A DNA stretch of 64,000 nucleotides from Eledone cirrhosa (lineage: Eukaryota), in contig OZ024741.1 of NCBI GenBank assembly GCA_964016885.1, forward strand, positions 379,564,001 to 379,628,000, in the 5' to 3' direction. Under the pieces are notes generated by a model. It ran no database searches and had not been told where the DNA came from. It saw only the letters and a program-made list of their open reading frames with translations. Shown in pieces: positions 7,392-46,285 of this stretch. A program made the translations under genes and the position numbers. How positions within the stretch are numbered: the stretch's first letter is position 1; every line of letters begins with the position of its first letter.

Positions 7392-9629
7392 TAACGTCAC
7401 AGATCTTATAGGATTATTCCTACTAGTGAATTTCTCCGATATGTTTCCTGCACTCGGAGGTGGATTGTACCGTGATGATGGGCTCCTTACCCCAGTAGTA
7501 CAGACCGGGTCCGTAAACAATTAATCAGCTTCTTCCGCGACTGCGGACTTAAAATAACCCTACAAACGTCCCTAACCCGAGTAATCTTCCTAGACGTTAC
7601 CCTTGACCTCGATAATGATCTGTACTACCCATACAGGAAACCCAATGACAACCTGCACTACATCCACCGCCGGTCAAACCACCCTAGAAACATCACCAAT
7701 AACCTGGTTAAATACATCTCCCTCCGCATATCTCGTTTGTGCGCTAATGAGCAGATATTCGAGGAACATGCGCCTTATTACAACCAGGCCCTCAAGCGGA
7801 GTGGCTTCCAGGAGTAAATATCATACTGTCCAGCTTCCATTAGCGGAACCAGCAGCCGTCACCGCCGCTCACGCAACGTAACATGGTTCAATCCTCCCCA
7901 CAACGCCGAGGTGACAGCCCCTATCGGGAAAATCTTCTTTAGGCTCATCGAAAAACACTTCCCACTTCAATACCGCTACCACAACATAATCAACAAACAT
8001 ACCATCAAACTCTCCTACAGAACCACGCCTAACTTTGCACAAAACATCGTTTCCTCTAACAACAAAAAACTCAACCCCTATGGAAGGAATAACCTAGATA
8101 GCAGTGGAGAGCCGACCAGGGGGTGTAACTGTCCTGATGTATCCATTTGCCCCCTCGACAACAGATGCAGAGATGGTAATGTGATCTACCAGTGCAACGT
8201 GAAGACGGACACCTCCAATAAAGCTTATATAGGATTAACCGGTTGTGACTTCACAACCCGGCTATACCAACTCATACCTACTTTCCGAAACCCGGCCCGG
8301 CGTCACGCCACTACACTTTCGGGCCACATCTGGGACCTCAAAGATAACAATATAACCTATAATCTCACTTGGAGCTTACTGTCCAGAGCCAACTCTTACA
8401 CGAGAGGACGCCGTACGTGTAACTTATGCTCGAAGGAAACATTACAAATATGTTTTCGACGGACCAACTCCTAAACAAGAAAGACGAACTGGTAACTGCA
8501 TGCAAACACAGATTGCGTAGGACTTATCTCGCCCTCAATCCCCATAATGACACGGGGGGGGTATAGACAAGGGCTGCAAAGGTAGACGTAATATTTTCTT
8601 ATATATTTTTTATCGTTTCCTCTATATTTCCTTCTGCCCCCCACCCCTTCCTAGTCCTTCCACCCCAGATCTCCTTCCTTGTCGTCGTTCTTTTCACCTT
8701 CTCGCCCACCTCGAGGCAGCCCTTCGGTCCTCTGTAGCCTAAACTCACACCCCCTATTCTATGATAGAATTGGCCGACTCCGTTTTTTATAGCAGATGTG
8801 CTAGACCCCAGATACTTGCTTTCTTATCTGATTGCTGCCCCATTTACGTGATTTCTAGATTTCTTAGTCGTATCCCCGTTTTAGTGTCTCGTATATCAGT
8901 ATTTTTCTTTTCGGGCATTCTGAATTAATTTTTCGTATTAAATTTTTCGTATTAGTTTTTCATATATATTTTACGAGCATTTATGTAGTTTGTATTAGAA
9001 TTTCTGTATTGTAGTGGTACTCTTATATATCGTATTAGTTTCGGGGCTCTGAATTATTATTTCGTATTAGTTTTTTTGTTTTTATTATTTGGGGCCCCTA
9101 CTTGTTGACCTGAAATTGTTAGATAGATTTGGCCGATGACTACTAACTCATAAAATTATTTCACTACTATCTCGTATTTAGTATTCCGTCCCACCTATTA
9201 AACTGTTTTATAGTTTAGCAGTACCAGTGAGAGATTTGAGGATTGTAGTAGGGGAACAGTAACCAAAAATTGTGTTTTTTTATATTTTTAATATTCTTAT
9301 ATTTTTCTATATATATACTCCATATAGATTTACTTCTCTCGACCTCTTATCCTTAGCATTCTGCTGTAGTTGTAACATTCAACGCAAGATGGGTTTCCTC
9401 CACTCCCTCTCCGTCTTTCTTCTACTGGCAAGTTCAGTTATCCCTTCCTTCCACAAAAGGGCATGATAGAATTATGTGTCTAAACAACAAACTTTTGACC
9501 AATTCTTGTGACAATCACTTTTACCATATATGGAATTACCCCCTGAGAAGCTCGGCTATTCCTTTACCAGGATAAGAATTATCATTTAGTCCAGAATTAG
9601 CCGTCGAAACAGCTTGAGCTCAGCCGTCG

Positions 9630-15093: not shown

Positions 15094-15150
<57 letters not shown>

Positions 15151-15283
15151 ATATATATGTGAATATAGACATAGAATATTCGAAAATATTCTGTATGTTT
15201 ATAATAAACATTTTGAAGACCTAATCGCTATAGAATAGAATACGTCACGTATTACAATTAGATTCTCGATAAAAGCAAGGGAA

Positions 15284-15326
15284 GTAATCTACGCGTTTCA
15301 TTCTTGTTAGAATTCATCAGGACTAC
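15284..15326 (-). ncRNA. Type I hammerhead ribozyme (first of 10 minus-strand copies, every 310 bp)
   Basis: Reverse complement of the motif at 18565-18607 (gtaatctacgcgtttcattcttgttagaattcatcaggactac). Confidence 0.9.
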
Positions 15327-18295
15327 ATATCCAGTGCTTTTATCGAGAATGACACAGCTAGAGACTTATAGAATACTTAGCTGTGTACAGGAACTGGTTT
15401 GAAAGAGCGGTTGCCGGTCCGGCAGAAATTAGAAATTGGAATAAATGCTCTGAAATAGCGATATATATGTGAATATAGACATAGAATATTCGAAAATATT
15501 CTGTATGTTTATAATAAACATTTTGAAGACCTAATCGCTATAGAATAGAATACGTCACGTATTACAATTAGATTCTCGATAAAAGCAAGGGAAGTAATCT
15601 ACGCGTTTCATTCTTGTTAGAATTCATCAGGACTACATATCCAGTGCTTTTATCGAGAATGACACAGCTAGAGACTTATAGAATACTTAGCTGTGTACAG
15701 GAACTGGTTTGAAAGAGCGGTTGCCGGTCCGGCAGAAATTAGAAATTGGAATAAATGCTCTGAAATAGCGATATATATGTGAATATAGACATAGAATATT
15801 CGAAAATATTCTGTATGTTTATAATAAACATTTTGAAGACCTAATCGCTATAGAATAGAATACGTCACGTATTACAATTAGATTCTCGATAAAAGCAAGG
15901 GAAGTAATCTACGCGTTTCATTCTTGTTAGAATTCATCAGGACTACATATCCAGTGCTTTTATCGAGAATGACACAGCTAGAGACTTATAGAATACTTAG
16001 CTGTGTACAGGAACTGGTTTGAAAGAGCGGTTGCCGGTCCGGCAGAAATTAGAAATTGGAATAAATGCTCTGAAATAGCGATATATATGTGAATATAGAC
16101 ATAGAATATTCGAAAATATTCTGTATGTTTATAATAAACATTTTGAAGACCTAATCGCTATAGAATAGAATACGTCACGTATTACAATTAGATTCTCGAT
16201 AAAAGCAAGGGAAGTAATCTACGCGTTTCATTCTTGTTAGAATTCATCAGGACTACATATCCAGTGCTTTTATCGAGAATGACACAGCTAGAGACTTATA
16301 GAATACTTAGCTGTGTACAGGAACTGGTTTGAAAGAGCGGTTGCCGGTCCGGCAGAAATTAGAAATTGGAATAAATGCTCTGAAATAGCGATATATATGT
16401 GAATATAGACATAGAATATTCGAAAATATTCTGTATGTTTATAATAAACATTTTGAAGACCTAATCGCTATAGAATAGAATACGTCACGTATTACAATTA
16501 GATTCTCGATAAAAGCAAGGGAAGTAATCTACGCGTTTCATTCTTGTTAGAATTCATCAGGACTACATATCCAGTGCTTTTATCGAGAATGACACAGCTA
16601 GAGACTTATAGAATACTTAGCTGTGTACAGGAACTGGTTTGAAAGAGCGGTTGCCGGTCCGGCAGAAATTAGAAATTGGAATAAATGCTCTGAAATAGCG
16701 ATATATATGTGAATATAGACATAGAATATTCGAAAATATTCTGTATGTTTATAATAAACATTTTGAAGACCTAATCGCTATAGAATAGAATACGTCACGT
16801 ATTACAATTAGATTCTCGATAAAAGCAAGGGAAGTAATCTACGCGTTTCATTCTTGTTAGAATTCATCAGGACTACATATCCAGTGCTTTTATCGAGAAT
16901 GACACAGCTAGAGACTTATAGAATACTTAGCTGTGTACAGGAACTGGTTTGAAAGAGCGGTTGCCGGTCCGGCAGAAATTAGAAATTGGAATAAATGCTC
17001 TGAAATAGCGATATATATGTGAATATAGACATAGAATATTCGAAAATATTCTGTATGTTTATAATAAACATTTTGAAGACCTAATCGCTATAGAATAGAA
17101 TACGTCACGTATTACAATTAGATTCTCGATAAAAGCAAGGGAAGTAATCTACGCGTTTCATTCTTGTTAGAATTCATCAGGACTACATATCCAGTGCTTT
17201 TATCGAGAATGACACAGCTAGAGACTTATAGAATACTTAGCTGTGTACAGGAACTGGTTTGAAAGAGCGGTTGCCGGTCCGGCAGAAATTAGAAATTGGA
17301 ATAAATGCTCTGAAATAGCGATATATATGTGAATATAGACATAGAATATTCGAAAATATTCTGTATGTTTATAATAAACATTTTGAAGACCTAATCGCTA
17401 TAGAATAGAATACGTCACGTATTACAATTAGATTCTCGATAAAAGCAAGGGAAGTAATCTACGCGTTTCATTCTTGTTAGAATTCATCAGGACTACATAT
17501 CCAGTGCTTTTATCGAGAATGACACAGCTAGAGACTTATAGAATACTTAGCTGTGTACAGGAACTGGTTTGAAAGAGCGGTTGCCGGTCCGGCAGAAATT
17601 AGAAATTGGAATAAATGCTCTGAAATAGCGATATATATGTGAATATAGACATAGAATATTCGAAAATATTCTGTATGTTTATAATAAACATTTTGAAGAC
17701 CTAATCGCTATAGAATAGAATACGTCACGTATTACAATTAGATTCTCGATAAAAGCAAGGGAAGTAATCTACGCGTTTCATTCTTGTTAGAATTCATCAG
17801 GACTACATATCCAGTGCTTTTATCGAGAATGACACAGCTAGAGACTTATAGAATACTTAGCTGTGTACAGGAACTGGTTTGAAAGAGCGGTTGCCGGTCC
17901 GGCAGAAATTAGAAATTGGAATAAATGCTCTGAAATAGCGATATATATGTGAATATAGACATAGAATATTCGAAAATATTCTGTATGTTTATAATAAACA
18001 TTTTGAAGACCTAATCGCTATAGAATAGAATACGTCACGTATTACAATTAGATTCTCGATAAAAGCAAGGGAAGTAATCTACGCGTTTCATTCTTGTTAG
18101 AATTCATCAGGACTACATATCCAGTGCTTTTATCGAGAATGACACAGCTAGAGACTTATAGAATACTTAGCTGTGTACAGGAACTGGTTTGAAAGAGCGG
18201 TTGCCGGTCCGGCAGAAATTAGAAATTGGAATAAATGCTCTGAAATAGCGATATATATGTGAATATAGACATAGAATATTCGAAAATATTCTGTA

Positions 18296-18385
18296 TGTTT
18301 ATAATAAACATGTTTATAATAAACATGTTTATAATAAACATGTTTATAATAAACATGTTTATAATAAACATGTTTATAATAAACA
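18296..18385. repeat. 6 x 15-bp near-palindromic repeat at the symmetry axis of the array
   Basis: (TGTTTATAATAAACA)6; the unit is a hairpin present once in every 310-bp monomer. Confidence 0.95.
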
Positions 18386-18564
18386 TACAGAATATTTTCG
18401 AATATTCTATGTCTATATTCACATATATATCGCTATTTCAGAGCATTTATTCCAATTTCTAATTTCTGCCGGACCGGCAACCGCTCTTTCAAACCAGTTC
18501 CTGTACACAGCTAAGTATTCTATAAGTCTCTAGCTGTGTCATTCTCGATAAAAGCACTGGATAT

Positions 18565-18607
18565 GTAGTCCTGATGAATTCTAACAAGAATGAAACGCGT
18601 AGATTAC
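18565..18607 (+). ncRNA. Type I hammerhead ribozyme (first of 7 plus-strand copies, every 310 bp)
   Basis: GTAGTC-CTGATGA-ATTCT(AACA)AGAAT-GAAA-CGCG-TA-GATTAC. Stem I GTAGTC/GATTAC (one G-U), intact CUGAUGA and GAAA, 5-bp stem II, palindromic minimal stem III, GUA cleavage triplet (cut after 18601). Confidence 0.9.
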
Positions 18608-20642
18608 TTCCCTTGCTTTTATCGAGAATCTAATTGTAATACGTGACGTATTCTATTCTATAGCGATTAGGTCTTCAAAATGTTTATTATAAACATACAG
18701 AATATTTTCGAATATTCTATGTCTATATTCACATATATATCGCTATTTCAGAGCATTTATTCCAATTTCTAATTTCTGCCGGACCGGCAACCGCTCTTTC
18801 AAACCAGTTCCTGTACACAGCTAAGTATTCTATAAGTCTCTAGCTGTGTCATTCTCGATAAAAGCACTGGATATGTAGTCCTGATGAATTCTAACAAGAA
18901 TGAAACGCGTAGATTACTTCCCTTGCTTTTATCGAGAATCTAATTGTAATACGTGACGTATTCTATTCTATAGCGATTAGGTCTTCAAAATGTTTATTAT
19001 AAACATACAGAATATTTTCGAATATTCTATGTCTATATTCACATATATATCGCTATTTCAGAGCATTTATTCCAATTTCTAATTTCTGCCGGACCGGCAA
19101 CCGCTCTTTCAAACCAGTTCCTGTACACAGCTAAGTATTCTATAAGTCTCTAGCTGTGTCATTCTCGATAAAAGCACTGGATATGTAGTCCTGATGAATT
19201 CTAACAAGAATGAAACGCGTAGATTACTTCCCTTGCTTTTATCGAGAATCTAATTGTAATACGTGACGTATTCTATTCTATAGCGATTAGGTCTTCAAAA
19301 TGTTTATTATAAACATACAGAATATTTTCGAATATTCTATGTCTATATTCACATATATATCGCTATTTCAGAGCATTTATTCCAATTTCTAATTTCTGCC
19401 GGACCGGCAACCGCTCTTTCAAACCAGTTCCTGTACACAGCTAAGTATTCTATAAGTCTCTAGCTGTGTCATTCTCGATAAAAGCACTGGATATGTAGTC
19501 CTGATGAATTCTAACAAGAATGAAACGCGTAGATTACTTCCCTTGCTTTTATCGAGAATCTAATTGTAATACGTGACGTATTCTATTCTATAGCGATTAG
19601 GTCTTCAAAATGTTTATTATAAACATACAGAATATTTTCGAATATTCTATGTCTATATTCACATATATATCGCTATTTCAGAGCATTTATTCCAATTTCT
19701 AATTTCTGCCGGACCGGCAACCGCTCTTTCAAACCAGTTCCTGTACACAGCTAAGTATTCTATAAGTCTCTAGCTGTGTCATTCTCGATAAAAGCACTGG
19801 ATATGTAGTCCTGATGAATTCTAACAAGAATGAAACGCGTAGATTACTTCCCTTGCTTTTATCGAGAATCTAATTGTAATACGTGACGTATTCTATTCTA
19901 TAGCGATTAGGTCTTCAAAATGTTTATTATAAACATACAGAATATTTTCGAATATTCTATGTCTATATTCACATATATATCGCTATTTCAGAGCATTTAT
20001 TCCAATTTCTAATTTCTGCCGGACCGGCAACCGCTCTTTCAAACCAGTTCCTGTACACAGCTAAGTATTCTATAAGTCTCTAGCTGTGTCATTCTCGATA
20101 AAAGCACTGGATATGTAGTCCTGATGAATTCTAACAAGAATGAAACGCGTAGATTACTTCCCTTGCTTTTATCGAGAATCTAATTGTAATACGTGACGTA
20201 TTCTATTCTATAGCGATTAGGTCTTCAAAATGTTTATTATAAACATACAGAATATTTTCGAATATTCTATGTCTATATTCACATATATATCGCTATTTCA
20301 GAGCATTTATTCCAATTTCTAATTTCTGCCGGACCGGCAACCGCTCTTTCAAACCAGTTCCTGTACACAGCTAAGTATTCTATAAGTCTCTAGCTGTGTC
20401 ATTCTCGATAAAAGCACTGGATATGTAGTCCTGATGAATTCTAACAAGAATGAAACGCGTAGATTACTTCCCTTGCTTTTATCGAGAATCTAATTGTAAT
20501 ACGTGACGTATTCTATTCTATAGCGATTAGGTCTTCAAAATGTTTATTATAAACATACAGAATATTTTCGAATATTCTATGTCTATATTCACATATATAT
20601 CGCTATTTCAGAGCATTTATTCCAATATATATATATATATAT

Positions 20643-21406
20643 ATATAAATATAAATTATCGAGAATCGCATTTCGGCCCACGAAATAACGAAAACAACCT
20701 CCGAGATATGTGGCAAATGCACAATGAATCGGATGAACCAGAGCTATAACAAACTTTAAAGGCCGAACACACTGAGACGATGGTTAAATAATCATTCGCA
20801 TAGCCAAAACAACGATCAAGTAATTCGGGTCAAACAAATAAAAATATCTGTGATTGAAAATATACCCGGACCCCTGGAAGGTTGGTAAAATCCACCATTT
20901 GGGTTCCTGCGGCTCCTAAATCAATTACTGTCCGCTAACATAAATAATGTTAGGCTTCTGGTAAGATGATTGAACAAGGAAGCCACTTTCTCAACAGGTT
21001 TTAGTTCAATGTTAATACAAGGACTGACTATTGCTGATCGCACGTGGGGATCGGCAAGGGGGGCAACCCCTATATCAGGCGAATGAATTCAGTTGTGTAT
21101 GTTATTGCAAAAATGCAAAAACATCACAAATAAAATAGAGTTCTCATCAGAAGGGTTAACATTAATATAAGCTATTGATCAGTCAATAGAATCAACTAAA
21201 AAATCAAAAAAATTAACTGGTCAATAGCTAGAGTCTGGAGATTAATATAAATATAAATTATCGAGAATCGCATTTCGGCCCACGGAATAACGAAAAACAA
21301 CCTCCGAGATGTGTGGCAAGTGCTCAATGATTCGGATGAACCAGAGCTATAACAAACGTTAAAGGCCGACCACACTGAGACGATGTTTAAACAATCATTC
21401 GCATAG

Positions 21407-21410
<4 letters not shown>
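20643..21410. repeat. Partial tandem repeat (~600-bp period) of an unclassified interspersed family
   Basis: 20643-20810 recurs at 21245-21410; a diverged inverted copy lies at ~55070-55300. Confidence 0.7.
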
Positions 21411-21585: not shown

Positions 21586-21708
21586 GTGTGTGTGTGTGTG
21601 TGTGTGTGAGTGTAGGTCCAAGATTATTGCGTCCGTAGATGGTATGCCTGCTGAGCACTCACTGTTCGCTCAGAGCAGTGTATAATAGTGTAATAATAAA
21701 AGAAAAAT

Positions 21709-21875
21709 GAATCTGTGTTGCATCATAACATATTTAATGACATATTACATATGTTTCACTGTCGATCAGATCGAGGAACGATCTATTATCGATCAATAAT
21801 GGATCGTTCCCCCAGGTTTTCGTCAGTGAAACGTATGTAATATGTATTTAAATATGTCATGATGTAACACAGATT
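21709..21875. repeat. Hairpin/MITE-like palindromic element
   Basis: aatctgtgttgcatcat...tttcactg / cagtgaaa...atgatgtaacacagatt arms with an inner ggaacgatc..gatcgttcc hairpin. Confidence 0.7.
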
Positions 21876-21926
21876 CTTTGTTAATTTATTTTTAAATAAT
21901 GGGTGTGTACATATATATATATAGTT

Positions 21927-22045
21927 TTAATATAGATGAGATTCTACAGGACTAGAACTGTTTCATTCTTGAGAAATCACCAGGATTCCTGGTGATTGCT
22001 CAAGAATGAAACAGTTCTAGTCCTCTAGAATCTCATCTATATTAA
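21927..22045. repeat. 119-bp palindrome made of two head-to-head hammerhead-derived arms
   Basis: Symmetric about 21986; each arm reads ctggtgatt(g/t)ctcaagaatGAAAcagttctagtcc; single arm with intact CTGATGA at 60918. Confidence 0.8.
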
Positions 22046-22120
22046 GACTTTTATACTCTGCTATGTATTGAGTACCTTACTTACTGTGGTCACCTCCGAT
22101 TCAACCTGGAATAATTTACC

Positions 22121-22189
<69 letters not shown>

Positions 22190-22415
22190 GGTGTAACAGA
22201 TTATTGTTATAGGTAGTCCACTTAAGTGTAGTCCAGTTATGGTACTCCAAGTAGTGGATGATATCAACACTTGGCTAAGTTTGACTCAACAAGGCGTTTT
22301 CATAGTGATGCTGAGAGTACGCGGTAATGTCCATGTTGTAAACACTTGGCGTATTGATAAATCAGAAAAGAAGAGTGACACTGTTTGCTATACAAAAAAG
22401 GTTTTTAATCTCATT

Positions 22416-22521
22416 GCTGACAATTGTTTCTCTGATCTGGTAGGTCTAGAGATCGCTACCCGCTTGTTTTCACATCATTCGATCACCAATACATAGTTGT
22501 CACCAGTCAATTCATCGGAGC
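22416..22521 (-). ncRNA. Degenerate hammerhead motif with long stem II (PLE terminus)
   Basis: Minus strand: gct-CCGATGA-...-GAAA-CAATTG-TC-agc; one core substitution. Confidence 0.45.
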
Positions 22522-23006
22522 TTGTGAGAATGAATGAAATATACAGGCATGGCTACTATATATAGTAGTAATTGCATTCAATCAGAACAATAACAACAAT
22601 ACTAACAATGCTAGCAATAAATTATTTGAAATAATCACAACATCAATCTAGGTGAGAAATATAGTATATCTACGATTTTAGCGTGTAAAACTAGCTAGCA
22701 TGAGGCAGATGTATAAAATTGCCATGTAAAAGCTGTCATGGGGTGTATTATATATAGTGTAAAGATAAGCCGGTGGCTTTAAACAATGTAGGTCTGGTGG
22801 CCGTAAGAATCATTTATTATCTGACAGAGGAAAAATCTATCACTCTAGTGAGGATAGTAATATATGTGGTGTTAGGTTCAATATTTATGTGGTCTATATT
22901 AGATGAAAGGGTTGTCTAGCGTTCTCATCATCAATAACATACATGTATAAGACAACATTAACAGAGTAGCAATATAATAGGCTAGTTAATACAGAGGTTA
23001 AGGTGG

Positions 23007-25324
<2,318 letters not shown>

Positions 25325-25380
25325 GAAAGAAGGTTTACATGGTTTGCTATACAAAAAAAGTTTTTAATCACATAGAATCC

Positions 25381-25565
<185 letters not shown>

Positions 25566-26607
25566 TATATATATATATTGCCTCCTTAACCTCTGTATTA
25601 ATTTGCCTATTATATTGCTACTCTGTTAATGTAGTCTTATACATGTATGTTAGTGATGATGAGAAAGCTAGACAACCCTTTCATCTAATATAGACCACAT
25701 AAATATTGGACCTCTTCTGGAGCGTTGTTTAGATACACCTATTGTACGCAGATAGTTGCTTAGACTAGATGCCATTACCGCAAATAATAGCTTTCTTTTA
25801 AGATTCTGAAGGGTGTAATTGGTCGAAGCTATCTGATATATGCTCCTTGCGGATATTCACCCCTCTCACTTTCGTCCACTTGCTAATCATATAAAATATC
25901 TTCCATGCCAGCTTGTAATCACTGTAATTTCTGGATTGTTCAAATCCTTTCGGATATTCGCAGCAGAAAACAAATAACTACATGCAAGCATGCTACAACT
26001 TGTTAATACCACCAGCCAACAACAGAGCTTCTATGCGATGTTTGACCTCCGAGAAACCTAATATTAATCCAGTCACATTTTTACAAAATGATTCATTGAA
26101 TAATGTATGTTGATTTATTCTGTCATTGACAAACATATGGATGGTTCATCTGAAAAGACAGATATACTTGCTGTTTTGAACGGGAGCTGACCCATTGCTG
26201 CAATATATTTATCAGAGTTATACTAAACAAGGACAGACCCATGGTTTATTTGTATCAAGAAAAAAATAACATCAACATCAACTGAAATAGTATAAAAAAG
26301 AAATTAATGTCATTTGGTAAAAGCAACATCTGATACCTCCGAGAAGGATGCAAGAATCTAAATTTGGCTCTGATTCTGAAAGTCATGGATATTGTATCAC
26401 AATGTATTTCTTAAAACGAGACGGCTGCCAAGCATTGGATGTGAAATCCTTGGAAAAAACGGAATAATATTGATTTATCGAAAACTAGGTTGGTAGGGTT
26501 GATATCTTACTGCAAAATAGGCTAAAACCTGAGATTAGATTGTTTCCTTCATGTTGAAATGAGTTTTACTTCTTCTGTGAGTATATCTGTCTCTCTATCT
26601 ATCTATC

Positions 26608-28502: not shown

Positions 28503-31159
28503 TTCCTTGAATCTCAGTCATTGATGTTGGTTAACTGGAAAGTCCGTTGGATTGAATATCAAGCCACTACCTGCAGCCTCAGATATTCAGGACGTATCGG
28601 AGGGTTCTTGCTGTTCCAAGCAAGCATGCCTTTTGAAGCGTTCCAAAAAGCGTGAAGGGGCCGATTTTCTTTAACCATCCCTGGAAACTTTTGGAGATAG
28701 TCCCCAGTGCGCCTACGACAATCGGGATCACTTTGACTTCATGGCAGTTCCAAATCCTTTTCACCTCCCACTTTAGGTCCTGGTATCGGTTAATTTTCTC
28801 CCTCTCCTTCTCTTGCACTCTCGTGTCGAACGGGCAGGCCACATCCACAATCAGACACGATCTTTTTTCTTTGTCCACAACCACCAGGTCAGGTCTATTG
28901 TGTTCCAGTTTTTTGTCCGTCTGTATCCTAAAATCCCACAGCACCTTCACCTGATTGTTCTCCATCACCGCCTCTGGCCTATGCTCATACCATTTCTCAG
29001 AATGTGGTAAATTGTTTACTTTGCACAGGTGCCAGTGGATCACCCTGCCCATCACATCGTGTTTCCAGCCCTTATAGTGGGTCTGGGCTAGGTGTTTACA
29101 CTCGGACACAACGTGAGCCACAGTCTCCACTCTCTCTCCACAGATCCTGCACAGTGGGCTAGCCTCCTCCTTGTAAATATGGTGCTTCAACCACTTCGTT
29201 TTGAGGACCTGCTCCTGCGCAGCCATTAGCATTCCTTCTGTAGCCTTTTTGAGGTCTCCTCTTCTCAACCAGTTCCATGTCTGTGGATCTCTAAATTCAG
29301 TTTTCTCAAAGAAGGTACTATGAAGGGATTTTCCCTTAAGGCTGCTCTTCCTCCTTGATGTTATTTCCTCCTTGGACATCCCCTGGCCTATTGTCCCCTC
29401 CTTCAGTACAGCTCTGAGCATTGGCTCCTTACTATAGGTCACGTATTTGTATAGGTTGTTTTTCTCCATCTGAACACAGTCCTCTATGCTGATAAGACCT
29501 CTTCCACCCTCAGATCTCCTTAGGTAGAGTCTATCGACATCACTCCTCTTGTGGAACATGTTGTAGATAGTCAATAGCTTCCTAGTCTTCCTATCCATTT
29601 CTTTTTGTTCAGCAACATTCCATCTCAGAATTCCCGCACTGTACCTAATAACAGACACAGCTCGGGAATTTACTGCGCTTATGGCATTTCTGCTGTTCAG
29701 ATGTGACTTCAATACGCTCCTTACTCTCCGAATGTATTCAGTTCTTAACAATTCCTTCATTTTTTTGTTCTTTATGCCATCAGCCTCCAGAACGCCCAAA
29801 TACTTGTATCCTTCCTCCGAGTCAATTTCCTTTATCATCTCACCTGTTGGTATCTGGATCCCGTTACTTCTGCTCAACCTACCCCTCCTCATCACAATGA
29901 GTCCACATTTACCAATACCAAACTGCATACATATATCACTGCTGAAAATACGGACAGTGTCAACAAGCACATCCAACTCCTTCTCACTTTTCCCGAAGAG
30001 CTTAAGATCGTCCATGAAGAGGAGGTGATTGATGGTAAGCTCTCCCCTTCCCAACTTGTATCCTGCTCTCACTTTTCGCAGCATGATGGTCAAGGGCATC
30101 AGGGCAAGGACAAACAACAGAGGGGACAGGCTATCTCTCTGGAAGATACATCTCTTGATCTTCACGCTTCCCAAGGATACTCCAGTTGATGTCAACTCTG
30201 TCTCCCAGGACCCCATACTCCTGCCCAGCAACTGGCTGATGTTATCTGCCACCCTGAAGATCTCCAGGCTTTTGGTGATCCAAGAATGAGGCACCATGTC
30301 AAATGCCTTTCTGTAGTCTATCCATCCCATGGCAAGATCAGTGTGTCTCCTCCTGCAATTCCCCATTACCATCTTATCAATAAGTAACTGGTCCTTTGTA
30401 CCACGTGACTTCTTTCGGCATCCTTTCTGTTCGTCCGGTAACAAGTTGTTTGTGTGGAGGTGATGGTAGATTTCCTCAGACACAATGCTCGTCAACAGTT
30501 TCCACATTACGGATAGACATGTGATAGGTCTATAGTTGGTAACATCATTACCCTTGATTCGGTCTTTCATTATCAGAACTGTGGTACCTTTTGTCAACCA
30601 CTCTGGCACCTCACCCGACACCAAGCAGTCATTGAACATGGCTGTCAGCTTCGAGTGGGGGGATGTTAAATGTTTAATCCAATACCCCTGCACACCATCT
30701 GGGCCTGGTGATTTCCAGTTGGTTAGTTTTTTGGCCTGCCCCTTAAGAGTTTCAACTGTGATACTCAAATCAGTCTGTTGTTGTGCCTGCTCACCGATCT
30801 CCCTCTGTACTGTCTCAATCCACCCTGCCTGGACATTATGTCTAACATCCTGCTCCCATATTCCTCTCCAGAATGTTTTAGTTTGCTCCGTCCCAGGGAT
30901 CAAGTCGTTGCCTCTTTCTTTCCCCTCAAGCTGTCCAAACAGCATCTTCTGGTTGTTGTCGAACATGCGGTTCTGTTTATACTGACTGACTCTGTTCTCA
31001 TATCGCCTGATTTTTGCACTCTTTGCTACAATGCGTTGCTTCAGTTCCTCTATGATAATATTTAGCTTTTTCCTCCTCGTTTTGTACTTTATTTCCAGTC
31101 TCTTTTTAGTGTCTGTGTTTTTTAGTGACCCATTCAGTAGGGACTCAAGCTTTCCAATG
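28503..31159 (-). mobile_element. Dong/R4 non-LTR retrotransposon, 5'-truncated, in (TAA)n
   Basis: Long open RT-RLE frame flanked by (TAA)n tracts. Confidence 0.92.
28579..31158 (-). CDS. Reverse transcriptase + CCHC zinc knuckle + restriction-like endonuclease (5'-truncated; Met-initiated part 28579-30966, 795 aa)
   Basis: NYRPITCL, WIDYRKAFDMVPH, IFQRDSLSP, HLLFMDDLKLF, YKYLG, CRICG..ETVAHVVSEC, RPDLVVVD..IVDVACP; the frame stays open upstream of the Met to ~31158. Confidence 0.88.
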   Translation of the reverse strand: MGKLESLLNGSLKNTDTKKRLEIKYKTRRKKLNIIIEELKQRIVAKSAKIRRYENRVSQYKQNRMFDNNQKMLFGQLEGKERGNDLIPGTEQTKTFWRGIWEQDVRHNVQAGWIETVQREIGEQAQQQTDLSITVETLKGQAKKLTNWKSPGPDGVQGYWIKHLTSPHSKLTAMFNDCLVSGEVPEWLTKGTTVLIMKDRIKGNDVTNYRPITCLSVMWKLLTSIVSEEIYHHLHTNNLLPDEQKGCRKKSRGTKDQLLIDKMVMGNCRRRHTDLAMGWIDYRKAFDMVPHSWITKSLEIFRVADNISQLLGRSMGSWETELTSTGVSLGSVKIKRCIFQRDSLSPLLFVLALMPLTIMLRKVRAGYKLGRGELTINHLLFMDDLKLFGKSEKELDVLVDTVRIFSSDICMQFGIGKCGLIVMRRGRLSRSNGIQIPTGEMIKEIDSEEGYKYLGVLEADGIKNKKMKELLRTEYIRRVRSVLKSHLNSRNAISAVNSRAVSVIRYSAGILRWNVAEQKEMDRKTRKLLTIYNMFHKRSDVDRLYLRRSEGGRGLISIEDCVQMEKNNLYKYVTYSKEPMLRAVLKEGTIGQGMSKEEITSRRKSSLKGKSLHSTFFEKTEFRDPQTWNWLRRGDLKKATEGMLMAAQEQVLKTKWLKHHIYKEEASPLCRICGERVETVAHVVSECKHLAQTHYKGWKHDVMGRVIHWHLCKVNNLPHSEKWYEHRPEAVMENNQVKVLWDFRIQTDKKLEHNRPDLVVVDKEKRSCLIVDVACPFDTRVQEKEREKINRYQDLKWEVKRIWNCHEVKVIPIVVGALGTISKSFQGWLKKIGPFTLFGTLQKACLLGTARTLRYVLNI

Positions 31160-31180
31160 TATTATTATTATTATTATTAC

Positions 31181-39695: not shown

Positions 39696-39775
39696 ATACT
39701 TTGGGAGGGTCATGTTGCCAATAAGAAACACACGCACCAGTTTTTTCACTTCAATTTATTATATACCATATCAAA

Positions 39776-40612
39776 ATGAACATACTGATTGCGGATTTGG
39801 TACGGGTGATGATAAATGTGTCCCGCATGTGCAACCCCGAAGAACTAGAGAGACACATACAACACTTCATCCACCGTATGCAGTTCTCTGGCTACAATCA
39901 GAGAGATAGAATCAGAGTGTATAAAGGAGCCAGAACCAAATGGGAAAAAATGGTAAATAATGACATAAATGGGACCTGCCCCTTGTATAGGAGCAAATTT
40001 TGGAATAGAATAGAAAGAACTAGGAACAAGGCCAATAGAATAAACTCATGGTATGATAGCAATAAATACCAGAGTGTAATGTTCATCAATACAACCCCTA
40101 GAGGCGAACTAGCCTACAAATTTAGAAGGGCCCCAAATAAACATAATCTCAATATTAAGATAGTAGAAAGACCTGGTACCTCCGTAAAAACACTTATTAG
40201 CAAGACATACCCGTTCCAAAGACCCTCATGTATAGATAAGAAATGTATAACCTGTAAAATAAGCCCCCATATTAACTGTAAAACTAGAAATGTAGTGTAT
40301 AGCATAAGATGTACTGAAGGACAATGTAGAAACAAAAATATAGTGTACATAGGTGAGAGAGCTCGTAGAATAGGGGAACGAATAAATGAACACTGGCGAG
40401 ATCTCCAAGATAATAAAGAATCATCTGTGCTCTACCAACATGCTAAGATAGAACACAGGGGTAGATTAGAGAGCATAGAAATAAAAATAGAATCCACACA
40501 CAGAAAAGACGCAATGTTTAGGCAAATTACAGAGGCAGTAAGCATAAAAGAATTAAAACCAAAATTAAATAGAAAATATGAGTGGAACAGCAACATCACA
40601 ACTTACAATTAA
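39776..40612 (+). CDS. PLE polyprotein C-terminal fragment: RT thumb, Cys-rich linker, GIY-YIG endonuclease (278 aa)
   Basis: CITCK..CKTRNVVYSIRC...IVYIGERARRIGERINEH...RQITEAVSI..KPKLN. Confidence 0.8.
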   Translation: MNILIADLVRVMINVSRMCNPEELERHIQHFIHRMQFSGYNQRDRIRVYKGARTKWEKMVNNDINGTCPLYRSKFWNRIERTRNKANRINSWYDSNKYQSVMFINTTPRGELAYKFRRAPNKHNLNIKIVERPGTSVKTLISKTYPFQRPSCIDKKCITCKISPHINCKTRNVVYSIRCTEGQCRNKNIVYIGERARRIGERINEHWRDLQDNKESSVLYQHAKIEHRGRLESIEIKIESTHRKDAMFRQITEAVSIKELKPKLNRKYEWNSNITTYN

Positions 40613-41209: not shown

Positions 41210-43430
41210 GTAGAAGGGGTATTTAATTTTTGGAAGTCCGACTAATATAAATATTTGTAACTGATTTAGAGCATTTTATACTAGAACCGAACACTTTATA
41301 CCTAGAAGACCGAAAATTAATCTGAAAGACCACAAAAGAAACTACCAGTCAGACTTATAGCACCATCTAAATCACACTTAGGCATAGTTAGTAAATATAG
41401 GCTCTACTATCCATTCCATAAAATTAATGAGAACCTAAACTATGTAAGTTTTTACTCTAATCATCATGGATCTATGAAGAGCACTATTGTTAATTCTATC
41501 CAACAACGTATTTCACGCATCTCCGCTAATAAAAACATTTTTGACGATACGGCAGAATATTATAATGAAGCTTTAAATAGAGCAGGTTATATAAATAAGT
41601 TTAAATACATCGACAACAGTAATATGGCAAATAACCCTACTATTAATTATAATTATAATACAAAATTTAACTTAGACTCTAAAACTAACAAGAAATAGAA
41701 CTAGAAATATTATTTGGTAGTCACCCCCATTCTCATTAAGCGTTAAAATACATTTAGCAAAGCTATTCTTTAAAGCACTAGATAAATATTTTCCTAAAGC
41801 ACACATATACCACTCAATGTTTAACAGACATACTATAAAACTATCCTACTCTACTACTATGAACATAGCACGAAACATAAATAGAATTAATAATAGAAAT
41901 TGAAACCCTAACCAAAATAACCAAAATAGCAGTAATATATCTAGCAATATCCAACATAATAGTATCGTTCTGAATAACAACAACTCCGCAAAATGTAACT
42001 GTAGAATTAAATCAAACTGTCCTTTACAAAATATGTGTTTAGATAAGGACGTGGTCTATAAATGTACATTCAAAACTAGTGATAATATATTTAACTATGT
42101 AGGTGCAACTTCTACAGAATTTAAAAGTCGCTGGAATAATCACAAATGCTCTTTCAAAAGATTTGATAAAAAATGTTCAACTTCTCTTTCTAACCTAATA
42201 TGGAACATAAAATGCAAGAATATGGACTATTCATTAACTGGAGAAATAATTTCGAAGCACCCGCGTACCGGAACACAGCTTTATCCAGATTCTGAAAATT
42301 GTGTGTTGAGGAAATTTTTTTCATACTTAAATGTAAGAACTTAATGTAAGAACGAATTTATTTAATTATTGTAGTCATTGCCTGAATTCAACATACAGAA
42401 CTATATATAAATTATAATTATACTTATAATATTTCTACTTATTTTCATAACAATCTTATCCACTGGGTTTTAATATATTGATATCACTAAATCATAATCT
42501 CTATAACATTTGCTATAATTCCACTTCATAAAGTTTCATAAAATATATACATATATCATTCTAATTTTTTTTTTATTTTAATCTTAATTTTAATTGTAAT
42601 TTTAATCTTAATAATTTTTTATACTTTATTTTTATTTCCTTAATTTGTTATTTCTTTTAAAAATTACTTATCTCTTATAAATTATTTAAAAAAAAATGTT
42701 CTCAAATGGCTAAATATATCTTTCAATATTTATACTTATTTTGACTAAATACTCTCATACTAACGAATAAATAAATTAAAGTGGAGTTTTTCCGTATCTT
42801 CCAATTTTAAAATATATAAATATAAATATTCTTATTAACTCAGATAATTTAATTTAATTTAACTTAATATTTACTTACATTAAATACAAAACCAATATCC
42901 CTCATAAGTCAGTAAAACAATTATCTATAACATAATATAGCCATATATTTATTTATATATATATTTATTTATTTACTTATAACAGAAAATGTTATATTAT
43001 AAACGAATTTTAAACAACTAATAATCGTAGATAGACGTACTATTAAGATAAAATACTTAGAATATATTTCCTCCAAATTAACGTTATATGAGTGTTATTC
43101 ATCCTCTCTTGTCTATTTCTTCTCTCTCTCTCGTACTATTTTTTTTTATCTTTCTCCCCTCATATCTTCTCCATCTTCTACTCCAGTGTCATTTAAATAA
43201 ACGGTTGTTTTTCAAATATTTACATATTTATTTGCATATTAATTCACACATTAATTCACACATTAATTTGAATAATCACTAGTATATTTCCACAATCCAG
43301 TGAATTTCCAACCGATAAGGTATGATTTTCATGGGTATGTCCCTATTTATAAAACAAACTTTGTATTTTATTTGATAAAAGCGTTACCAATGTTGTCTTG
43401 GTATCCTTGATATATATATAACAACATAAA
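41210..43430 (+). mobile_element. Degenerate Penelope-like element
   Basis: LKDHK, SIQQRISRISAN, CNC..CPL..CLDKDVVYKC..YVGATSTEFKSRWNNHKCSF. Confidence 0.75.
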
Positions 43431-44500: not shown

Positions 44501-46285
44501 TGTCGAGTCACCTTAACGTATGTTGATAACTTTCCTCACAACTTGTTCTACCAAGCTTTGGAATATTACTAATTACTGAATATATATATATATATTCAGT
44601 AATTAGGAATATTCCAAAGCTTGGTAGAACAAGTTGTGAGGAAAGTTATCAACATACGTTAAGGTGACTCGACAGGTTGGTAGGGATTCTGTATTGGAAA
44701 CACTAACAAACGAGGAGTGTAATCAAAAAAGAGAAATAGGACGAAGGTAAACAGTTACACAAGAATTTAATCCACGTATTATCAATTGTTTCATCAGAAT
44801 TTCAGTCCATTATTGCTACACTATGTAACAATAGGCAATCAAAAAAGATACTGTTGCATCCGAATTTTCAAAATACAAAGTTGAAATGACCTTAGGAAAT
44901 GAAATATGGGGTAGTAGTGTAAGATAGAGGAACAGAGAGAGAGAGGGCAACAGAGAGGGAGAGCGAGAGAGAAAAGGGACGGAGGTAGGGAGATAAAGAG
45001 AAAGAGATAGTGTGGTGTGAGAGGATTTGTATAGAATATAGTTATGTTAGAGAAGGGAGGGGGAGGAGGGATGTGTGCTAAAAGTTGTGATGAGAGAAGG
45101 AAGATAGAATTTTAAGTGGCAGTTGGTAGTGGACAGGCGAAAGTTTTACCAGAGAATAGATAAAGGAAGAAAGTATTAAATTTCATATATAGTCTAATTT
45201 TAGGAGTGTAGAATTGTTATTTAGGGTAGAAAAGGAAGAGAGGTAGTGTTAAGATTTAGTTGAAGGTTTGAAGTGTGAGAACTTGGCTTTTAGTTTATGC
45301 TGGCAAAAGATTGACCTTTCAATTTTGTTGTTGAGTAGTTGGTGGCCTGAGCTTAGGATATGGAAGAGCTCATTATTACACAACGGGCACGTTTTCATCC
45401 CACTCCGGTATGGAGGAGCATGTGAGAGTTTGGTCCATTTAAGGGTGTATTGTGGTTACTCCCTTTTAAGTGCCAAATTTTGTCGGCGAGAGTGAGTTAT
45501 GTAACGGTGTTGGGGGTGCTTTATTGCGTAACGATGCGTGTACCAACGAGTTTTGAAGGTGTTTGCAGTGCTGCCTATGTAGTGCCAGGTTTGGTTGTCC
45601 GACTCAACCGAGCACCTGTACACTAGGTTTGAATGCAAACATACGTTATTCTATGGACAAGTCTCTGGAAGGTGGCAATTATAATTTCTGTTATGGGCAG
45701 TTGTGGAGTTATAGATGGGCTGGGATGTGTGTCTGAGTGTCTTTTGTGCATACTGTTTGTTAGTGGGTGGTTGTGTATTAGGTGTATTATGGTGTTGAGT
45801 GATTGGGGTGTTGTTGTTACGGAGTTTTTTTACGTTGAGCATCTTAATGTGTGCGTCTAGGTTTGGTGCAGTGGAATAAGATAGTCTAATTGTTTTGGTA
45901 TTAAGTATACTACTATATTTATGTGAATTTGGAAAGTGTTTTTTTATAATTTTGTAGAATGTGGAAGGTAAGTTAGAGCTAATAGAAGAGTTAAAAATAG
46001 GATTATACCAAATGTAAGATCTACTCCGTGTTCTGTTTTGCTTTGATGTTGCTGTTGTATTTGTGGTGTGGTTATTATAAGGGGGTCTAGGTACGTGTGT
46101 GCGGATGTTTGTGGGGCGTTTGGCGTGTCTATGGTTATGTGTTTTATGGTTCTGAATGTCTATGTATTCTAGTTTGTCGGTGTGGCAAGCCCGTTCTAAT
46201 GCAGTGAAATTCTGATGAAACAATTGTTAATACGTGGATTAAATCCTTTTGTAACTGTTTACCTTCGTCCTATTTCTCTTTTTTG
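44501..46285 (-). mobile_element. Penelope-like element 3' part with inverted segments at both ends
   Basis: WYNPIF, IRLSYST, NC..CP, VYRCSV..YIGSTANTFKTRWYTH; 44730-44810 inverted at 46205-46285; (TA)n-centred palindrome 44501-44674. Confidence 0.8.

Follow-up and report, generated by a model that had tools for sequence, protein, structure and literature searches.

We analyzed a 64,000-nt stretch of the Eledone cirrhosa genome (assembly GCA_964016885.1, contig OZ024741.1, positions 379,564,001 to 379,628,000 of the forward strand; hereafter the window), which contains tandem 310-nt hammerhead ribozyme units arranged as two outward-pointing arms between (TA)n tracts. This array is one young copy of a family of two-armed retrozymes. 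In this family, the arms joined the target at two fixed sites of the unit (A and B), A ends were strictly paired with B ends, the target was (TA)n, both arms had a common haplotype, and the inner ends were independent of the ribozyme cut site. Such insertions are probably explained by twin priming, at two sites of one RNA, by the enzyme of a Penelope-like element (PLE).

Anatomy of the Window Array

The array consisted of 10.2 copies of the unit on the minus strand (15151–18311) and 7.3 copies on the plus strand (18370–20626). The left (TA)n tract (15097–15150) had a single TT interruption, and the right (AT)n tract (20627–20647) was followed by an unrelated element with a 603-bp unit. Unit position 1 was set as the first base 3′ of the predicted hammerhead cut (window 18602), and the cut sites, 10 minus and 7 plus, were always spaced by 310 nt. 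The left or A arm, minus in ribozyme sense, had its inner end at unit 79 and its outer (RNA 3′) end at unit 139, with CACATATATAT running into (TA)n, 139 nt from the cut. The right or B arm also started at unit 79 and ended at unit 165, with TTCCAAT running into (AT)n, 165 nt from the cut. The original prediction, made from the letters of the window, that outward arms fuse to (TA)n at ends other than the cut site was thus confirmed. Its offset of 26 nt between the two ends (139 vs. 165) is correct for the window array as read, counting the whole AT run as element; genome-wide, 647 of 1,111 counted A ends joined TA as early as unit 130, which extends the offset up to 35 nt. The corresponding "tail" (unit 131–165; 20592–20626, plus strand) was present at the B end and is mostly missing at the A end.

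The units had been described as free of differences. This was true of the left arm, which had no mismatch to the unit, and failed by one position in the right arm, at 18378 (unit 87) in the centre; alignment of the units showed no graded divergence. Between the arms, a 15-nt repeat was present in 6.1 copies (18295–18386), of which the central junction insert (18312–18369) is a part, and it was derived from a near-palindrome at unit 79–95. Such repetition of the 15-mer was seen at the window locus only among the sampled arrays. We do not claim telomerase-like repeat addition for it, because a 2-nt join at the near-palindrome plus slippage explains the repeat equally well and the repetition was unmatched in the other sampled arrays.

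Identity of the Element

Each unit contained CUGAUGA, stem II and GAAAC of a hammerhead, with a palindromic ACGCGU replacing stem III. An example copy of the type I motif lies at 18556–18621 on the plus strand, with its predicted cut after 18601; the motif recurred with a period of 310 nt, and the core was intact in 17 copies. An Rfam search of the window at the gathering score returned no match, and the Hammerhead_HH9 model aligned over its full length at 23 bits (E 0.0016), under its gathering score of 52. The hammerhead region folded much better than shuffled sequence (z −6.96), with stems I and II formed. The unit had a GC content of 33–35% and, at 310 bp, lies within the ranges used for retrozymes (tandem monomers of 150–450 bp, GC <50%). 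The array was non-coding, with no stop-to-stop frame of at least 120 aa overlapping it, and no long terminal repeat (LTR) arrangement was visible in its sequence. No open reading frame (ORF) for a reverse transcriptase (RT) of telomerase-like type with a GIY-YIG endonuclease (EN) was present in the array, and the element is therefore not classed as an autonomous PLE. By these sequence features, the element is classed as an animal non-LTR retrozyme, and its insertions appear to resemble PLE insertions in inversion, tail and target.

Two Fixed Ends across the Genome

Exact matches to one hammerhead haplotype numbered 2,528 across the 3.0-Gb assembly. Exact junction patterns identified 464 A ends with C131 and 647 without it (zone A, unit 125–139), and 983 B ends at unit 165 plus 64 at unit 172 (zone B, unit 163–172), while the reversed control patterns for both junctions gave 0 matches. 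These end counts are lower bounds because variant haplotypes escape exact patterns; they suggest that the family comprises ~1,100 insertions and that A ends are nearly as numerous as B ends. Recurrence of two ends ~1,000 times each with zero controls is more than chance. Tabulating the ends of the genomic arrays, which had been put forward as a check, showed that they are far from random and fall in two zones only.

Pairing of the ends was examined in several samples. Among the first nine arrays on one contig (C1), which were not picked by end type, eight were inverted with arms outward; seven of these were A/B, with ends at ~139 and 165–167, and one lay in a non-TA target. In total, 76 inverted arrays were resolved, comprising the window array, eight not picked by end type and a remainder mostly picked by B end. 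By sequence, 74 of the 76 were A/B, none were A/A or B/B, one was atypical, and the last, incomplete at the edge of the retrieved sequence, was later read as A/B. By coordinates, each of the 71 convergent end pairs in the first 289 Mb of contig C1 (0–289 Mb) combined an A with a B end; 48 A and 38 B ends had no partner. Fifteen loci were picked by their A end: eight had a second arm, every one ending in zone B, and seven were single-armed. Of 75 listed arrays, 74 had TA on each side, and the B-side run was at least 13 nt at 75/75 B ends. The one non-TA target (L094) had a duplication of 9–12 bp. The search for an empty (TA)n allele, likewise suggested beforehand, covered the assembly: the left flank of the window array is present once in the assembly, and no empty allele was found there.

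At three other loci (L146, L151 and L132), the DNA flanking the TA target formed an inverted repeat (~45, 10 and 5 bp, respectively). Some targets are thus centres of pre-existing palindromes, and TA cruciforms could be a substrate.

What Selects the Ends

Joins used only two zones of the unit, although it offers 39 AT dinucleotides and, in addition, several ATAT/TATA words of greater length. In the AU-rich zone A, joins were scattered over 125–139, most commonly directly after TTC. Zone B offers 2 nt of homology, with joins at the AAT of 165 or 172 and seldom at 167 or 170. Two older sister retrozyme families (321 and ~316 bp; L138:5900–6770, L163 and L142:8900–9350), one with a UUGAUAA core, have different hammerheads and hold the hairpin, a short core and the two ends in common with the unit. 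One of them, with 2,173 motif matches, has AUGUAUACAU in the A region instead of (AU)4. Among 30 of its matches, the TA join stood right after TTC clearly in four and probably in two, ~14 ended in zone B, and the five loci with both ends readable were all A/B; its arms were mostly short. The distance from TTC to CCAAT is 35 nt in the unit, and the sister family has an offset of ~36 nt. Because many AT words are unused, B homology is only 2 nt and the sister family keeps the A site without (AU)4, position picks the zone, and microhomology appears to set only the register within it. The original prediction that AT microhomology selects the ends was therefore not upheld.

Directly upstream of zone A, unit 98–117 forms an 8-bp hairpin (example copy at 18699–18718, plus strand). 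It is retained across three sister families, and compensatory substitutions were seen: 97.9% of cells were paired and 2/8 pairs were changed on both sides, a covariation that comes from related sequences and counts as a hint only. The hairpin is a candidate protein-binding mark.

A Probable Single Template per Insertion

Haplotype counts covered 71 of the 76 arrays (572 units, of which 77 deviated); the other five had no full unit. There were 33 major haplotypes among the 71. The core haplotype was common to both arms in 51 of 57 arrays, and four of the six exceptions depended on a one-unit arm; random array pairs agreed in 6% of cases. Units differed by a mean of 0.33 within arrays vs. 3.69 between arrays. 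In 9 of 48 arrays, a variant present in all units of both arms was seen in no other sampled array. Three such private variants were checked genome-wide: one was fixed in two arrays, one occurred in five loci, and one was fixed in a single 18-unit array, its other copies being scattered in different backgrounds or in single units only. As a source for the L146 haplotype, scattered 216G units elsewhere were ruled out, since they sit in other backgrounds. Strict A/B pairing and the agreement of the arms support the proposal that both strands of (TA)n prime on one RNA.

Within arrays, 82 of 92 variants were singletons, against ~53% expected from gradual exchange, and thus most units of an array were born together. 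Eight arrays of at least 10 units carried no variant at all. Inner ends were uniform over the unit (Kolmogorov–Smirnov p 0.28 and 0.47), and only 4/152 lay within 5 nt of the cut; the enzyme therefore did not run off cleaved ends, in line with the idea that ends form independently of the ribozyme cut. The cut junction itself had 0 indels and three substitutions in 572 units. At the centres, microhomology of at least 2 nt was found in 25 of 44 simple joints (18% expected), a test that leaves out 32 of the 76 centres, 27 with inserts and five with long stem overlaps. Several of the 27 inserts were copied from nearby sequence. Such joints resemble polymerase theta-type joining. The lengths of the A and B arms were correlated (rho 0.37), with A longer than B in 34/76.

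No daughter of a linear template can exceed its source in length, nor can such a template fix a new variant in every unit. The many long homogeneous haplotypes therefore require passage through a monomer bottleneck, with multimerisation afterwards, and the simplest template to give both would be a circle; circles have been put forward as PLE and retrozyme templates (PMC4209133, PMC7229834). The circular or multimeric template proposed earlier is supported, while rolling on the circle is a step that we infer.

Proposed Mechanism and Alternatives

In the proposed mechanism, a PLE protein acting in trans, perhaps as a dimer, would bind the conserved hairpin region, and the PLE enzyme (RT/GIY-YIG) would nick both (TA)n strands ~9–12 nt apart. 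One 3′ end would prime at zone A (~unit 130–139) and the other at zone B (165, sometimes 167–172), with AT pairing setting the register only. Both enzymes would move in the same direction on one RNA molecule, probably a 310-nt circle, for several turns, which would need strand displacement. They would stop at random, and microhomology-type repair would join the cDNA ends into the head-to-head centre. Later, some long arms would change length by unequal exchange. Given twin priming at two sites by a PLE, a monomer circle is the likely template, and we judge the whole, with the circle as the usual template, to be reasonably probable. We would give about an even chance to the fullest form, in which the arrays record twin rolling-circle reverse transcription by an enzyme pair on a single ribozyme-made circle, with obligate one-per-site loading, mutual cDNA displacement and up to 10–20 turns. 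If true, this would explain the PLE tail, head-to-head inversion and tandem copies in one step, and would show retrozyme circles to be genuine intermediates of transposition, each jump passing through a bottleneck of a single molecule.

Several observations weigh against this account. There were ~12 single-armed inserts, one of which adjoins a run of N and is possibly not single, and twin priming is therefore not obligatory. Both arms of L130 switched haplotype in register after two turns, which suggests that the template was a multimer or that both arms changed template jointly, and which cannot come from a single monomer circle; in L114, one of the arms was mosaic. The long arms of L106, L107, L119 (45 units) and L161 had variants common to scattered units and therefore grew or were converted after insertion. 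Source arrays could lie on alleles outside the assembly. No partner and no RNA evidence of the element were found; specifically, no PLE with the unit core appeared among ~250 retrieved loci and with three PLE queries, including the 808-aa PLE described below. Uncleaved RNA was the substrate that a PLE used predominantly in vitro, and start-site preference was absent for either strand (PMC11167929).

The template of the same twin priming at two sites could instead have been a long transcript, uncleaved and linear (or multimeric), from a source array of homogeneous units; long sources would then be renewed by later unequal exchange. The haplotype switch mirrored in both arms of L130, the correlated arm lengths and the growth of long arms after insertion would all suit such a template, as would the in vitro preference for uncleaved RNA (PMC11167929) and the ACGCGU stem III, which suggests weak monomer cleavage (PMC4209133). 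However, none of the 32 other deviating unit pairs was mirrored. Daughters of a linear template would never be longer than their source, yet long homogeneous arms occur in 33 haplotypes, and one 18-unit haplotype had no possible source in the assembly, though another allele could hold it. We regard this template as possible but unlikely.

Short PLE-type inserts of one or two units could also have expanded later as satellites through unequal crossing-over, a route that has been discussed (10.64898/2026.07.22.740005). The scattered common variants of L106, L107, L119 and L161 and the short arms that prevail in the older sister family agree with it, but the excess of singletons, the eight long variant-free arrays and the correlated lengths of A and B arms do not, and we find this origin improbable. 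More doubtful still is single priming followed by fold-back self-priming of the second arm, as proposed for head-to-head PLEs (PMC3846280). A few centres were near-palindromic, with arms starting at the same position (79/79 in the window, 192/192, 288/288 and 80/77), but the majority joined unrelated positions, a spread that already largely refutes fold-back, which also gives no reason for a different fixed end or for a second arm longer than the first. An assembly artefact (consensus collapse, named beforehand as a possible source of the homogeneity, or a fold-back read) is scarcely credible: perfect identity and a 5-kb palindrome are typical of artefacts and the data are assembly sequence only, but the two ends show a constant difference, the sequences flanking them are unlike each other, and haplotypes are array-specific with singleton variants retained in other arrays.

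Candidate Enzyme and Neighbouring Elements

Elements of the Hydra clade of PLEs insert in (TA)n. The genome encodes an intact 808-aa PLE in several near-identical copies (L211–L224) with the motifs RWK, DKT, CxCX5C, CxxC and CxH, on which its assignment to the Hydra clade rests (PMC8557442); Pfam and PDB sequence searches with it gave no significant match. This family has its own two recurring ends, ~173 nt apart, far above a tail of 30–40 bp. The window holds a broken copy of a PLE with the Hydra motifs (22188–25700), further PLE fragments at 7818–8474, 39725–40612 (with a hammerhead-like motif downstream), 41321–42344 and 45651–46226, and, on the minus strand, an open 860-aa frame of a non-LTR retrotransposon with an RVT_1 domain (28579–31161; E 1.7e-19).

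Next to the array, in the same TA tract, lies a separate partial tandem (20643–21410) with a 603-bp period and 1.3 units that are 93–98% identical; it ends with GCCAAT into (AT)n, and a hammerhead motif scan of it was negative. Two short palindromic elements follow, at 21691–21894 (102-nt arms, no spacer) and 21916–22050 (~130 nt), and pieces of the latter were found again beside other arrays. Elsewhere in the genome, other unrelated hammerhead repeat families with 467-bp and ~490-bp units are likewise inverted in TA tracts (L165:400–3600, L103, L127 and L159). The 18–45-unit arms of L119/L168, L161, L106 and L107 carry block-duplicated variants, and these insertions seem to be becoming satellites through unequal exchange.

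Occurrence in Sequencing Runs

Of 24 listed runs, 20 contained the unit at 77–100% of its words; these came from 17 studies and carried 18 organism labels, and no RNA run was listed among them. When four runs were assembled, three gave one cyclic 340-nt contig, which was rejected as proof of an RNA circle because tandem DNA collapses to the same cycle. Two of the runs also contained single-read-length pieces of the genome's PLE at a depth of 2–3, and trace host DNA fits the presence of the unit in these two checked runs. Its occurrence under 18 organism labels may otherwise reflect horizontal spread or close relatives. In the ~1 in 100 of a Hi-C run that was searched, 0 reads were found, a share that does not amount to a test.

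Novelty and Comparison with Known Systems

How the tandem and inverted structures of PLEs form has been stated as an open question (PMC8557442), and mobilisation of retrozymes by PLEs through circles is a proposal lacking insertion-level evidence in the texts available (PMC4209133, PMC7229834, 10.64898/2026.07.22.740005). Both questions become testable with the ~1,100 very young insertions of this 310-nt template, whose variants serve as barcodes. We argue from the one-site-per-arm rule and the common haplotype that both target ends were primed on one molecule, a point unaddressed by the available text of the in vitro work (PMC11167929). The minimal unit, with its hairpin and two start zones, is a small defined substrate for studies of telomerase-related RTs. 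The individual parts are known, as is the class, animal non-LTR retrozymes that have the insertion anatomy of PLEs; a literature search, outside which most subscription papers and supplements lay, found no description of two-armed retrozyme arrays, strict A/B pairing or common arm haplotypes. The novelty of the pairing may be affected by figure S9 of PMC7229834 and by the supplements to PMC11167929 and 10.64898/2026.07.22.740005.

The arrays can be set beside three systems, in addition to L1. In the twin priming of L1, two primers on one RNA give outward arms with a microhomology joint, which is similar to the arrays described here. The second L1 site is variable and its arms copy different parts of the RNA, whereas the two sites of the arrays are fixed and each arm runs repeatedly over one and the same unit.

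Animal non-LTR retrozymes share with the array ~300-bp tandem units, low GC, one type I hammerhead per unit and the absence of ORFs (PMC7229834, 10.64898/2026.07.22.740005). PLEs have been proposed as their mobilising partner, with circles as the template, while the available text of the same two sources makes no mention, for retrozymes, of arrays with two inverted arms, of fixed ends, of a tail or of insertion directed to (TA)n. For animal retrozymes, expression, circles and self-cleavage have been demonstrated, whereas the present element is known from DNA sequence. The 2026 preprint (10.64898/2026.07.22.740005) ties retrozymes to pseudo-LTRs (pLTRs) by sequence, and no such partner was found here.

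PLEs have a tail of 30–40 bp at one end (PMC8557442), or of 31 bp (PMC3846280), and the offset of 26–35 nt matches this known Penelope tail. PLEs are recognised by their tail, inverted copy and bias toward (TA)n, and the arrays share with insertions of endonuclease-bearing PLEs the head-to-head inversion, 5′ truncation, one-end tail and (TA)n target (PMC8557442, PMC3846280). Target duplications are 8–10 bp in PLEs, where visible, and 9–12 bp here, readable at one locus (L094) only. Unlike these PLEs, the arrays have no RT/EN ORF and reach up to 45 units per arm, vs. a partial tandem, and A/B pairing is strict, whereas the PLE tail is optional or often at one end (PMC8557442, PMC3846280).

The closest biochemical comparison is with Poseidon PAc, a PLE studied in vitro by Frangieh et al. 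(2024), which nicks and extends both strands and has two adjacent internal starts that define the tail (PMC11167929). Like the enzyme proposed for the arrays, Poseidon PAc nicks and extends each strand of AT-rich DNA; as in the arrays, the ribozyme cut is unused as an end, and the two starts lie ~110–150 nt downstream of the hammerhead region. Poseidon PAc differs in its equal use of the sites on both strands, its linear template and its initiation, which needed no homology (PMC11167929); in the arrays, by comparison, AT pairing appears to set the register of the join.

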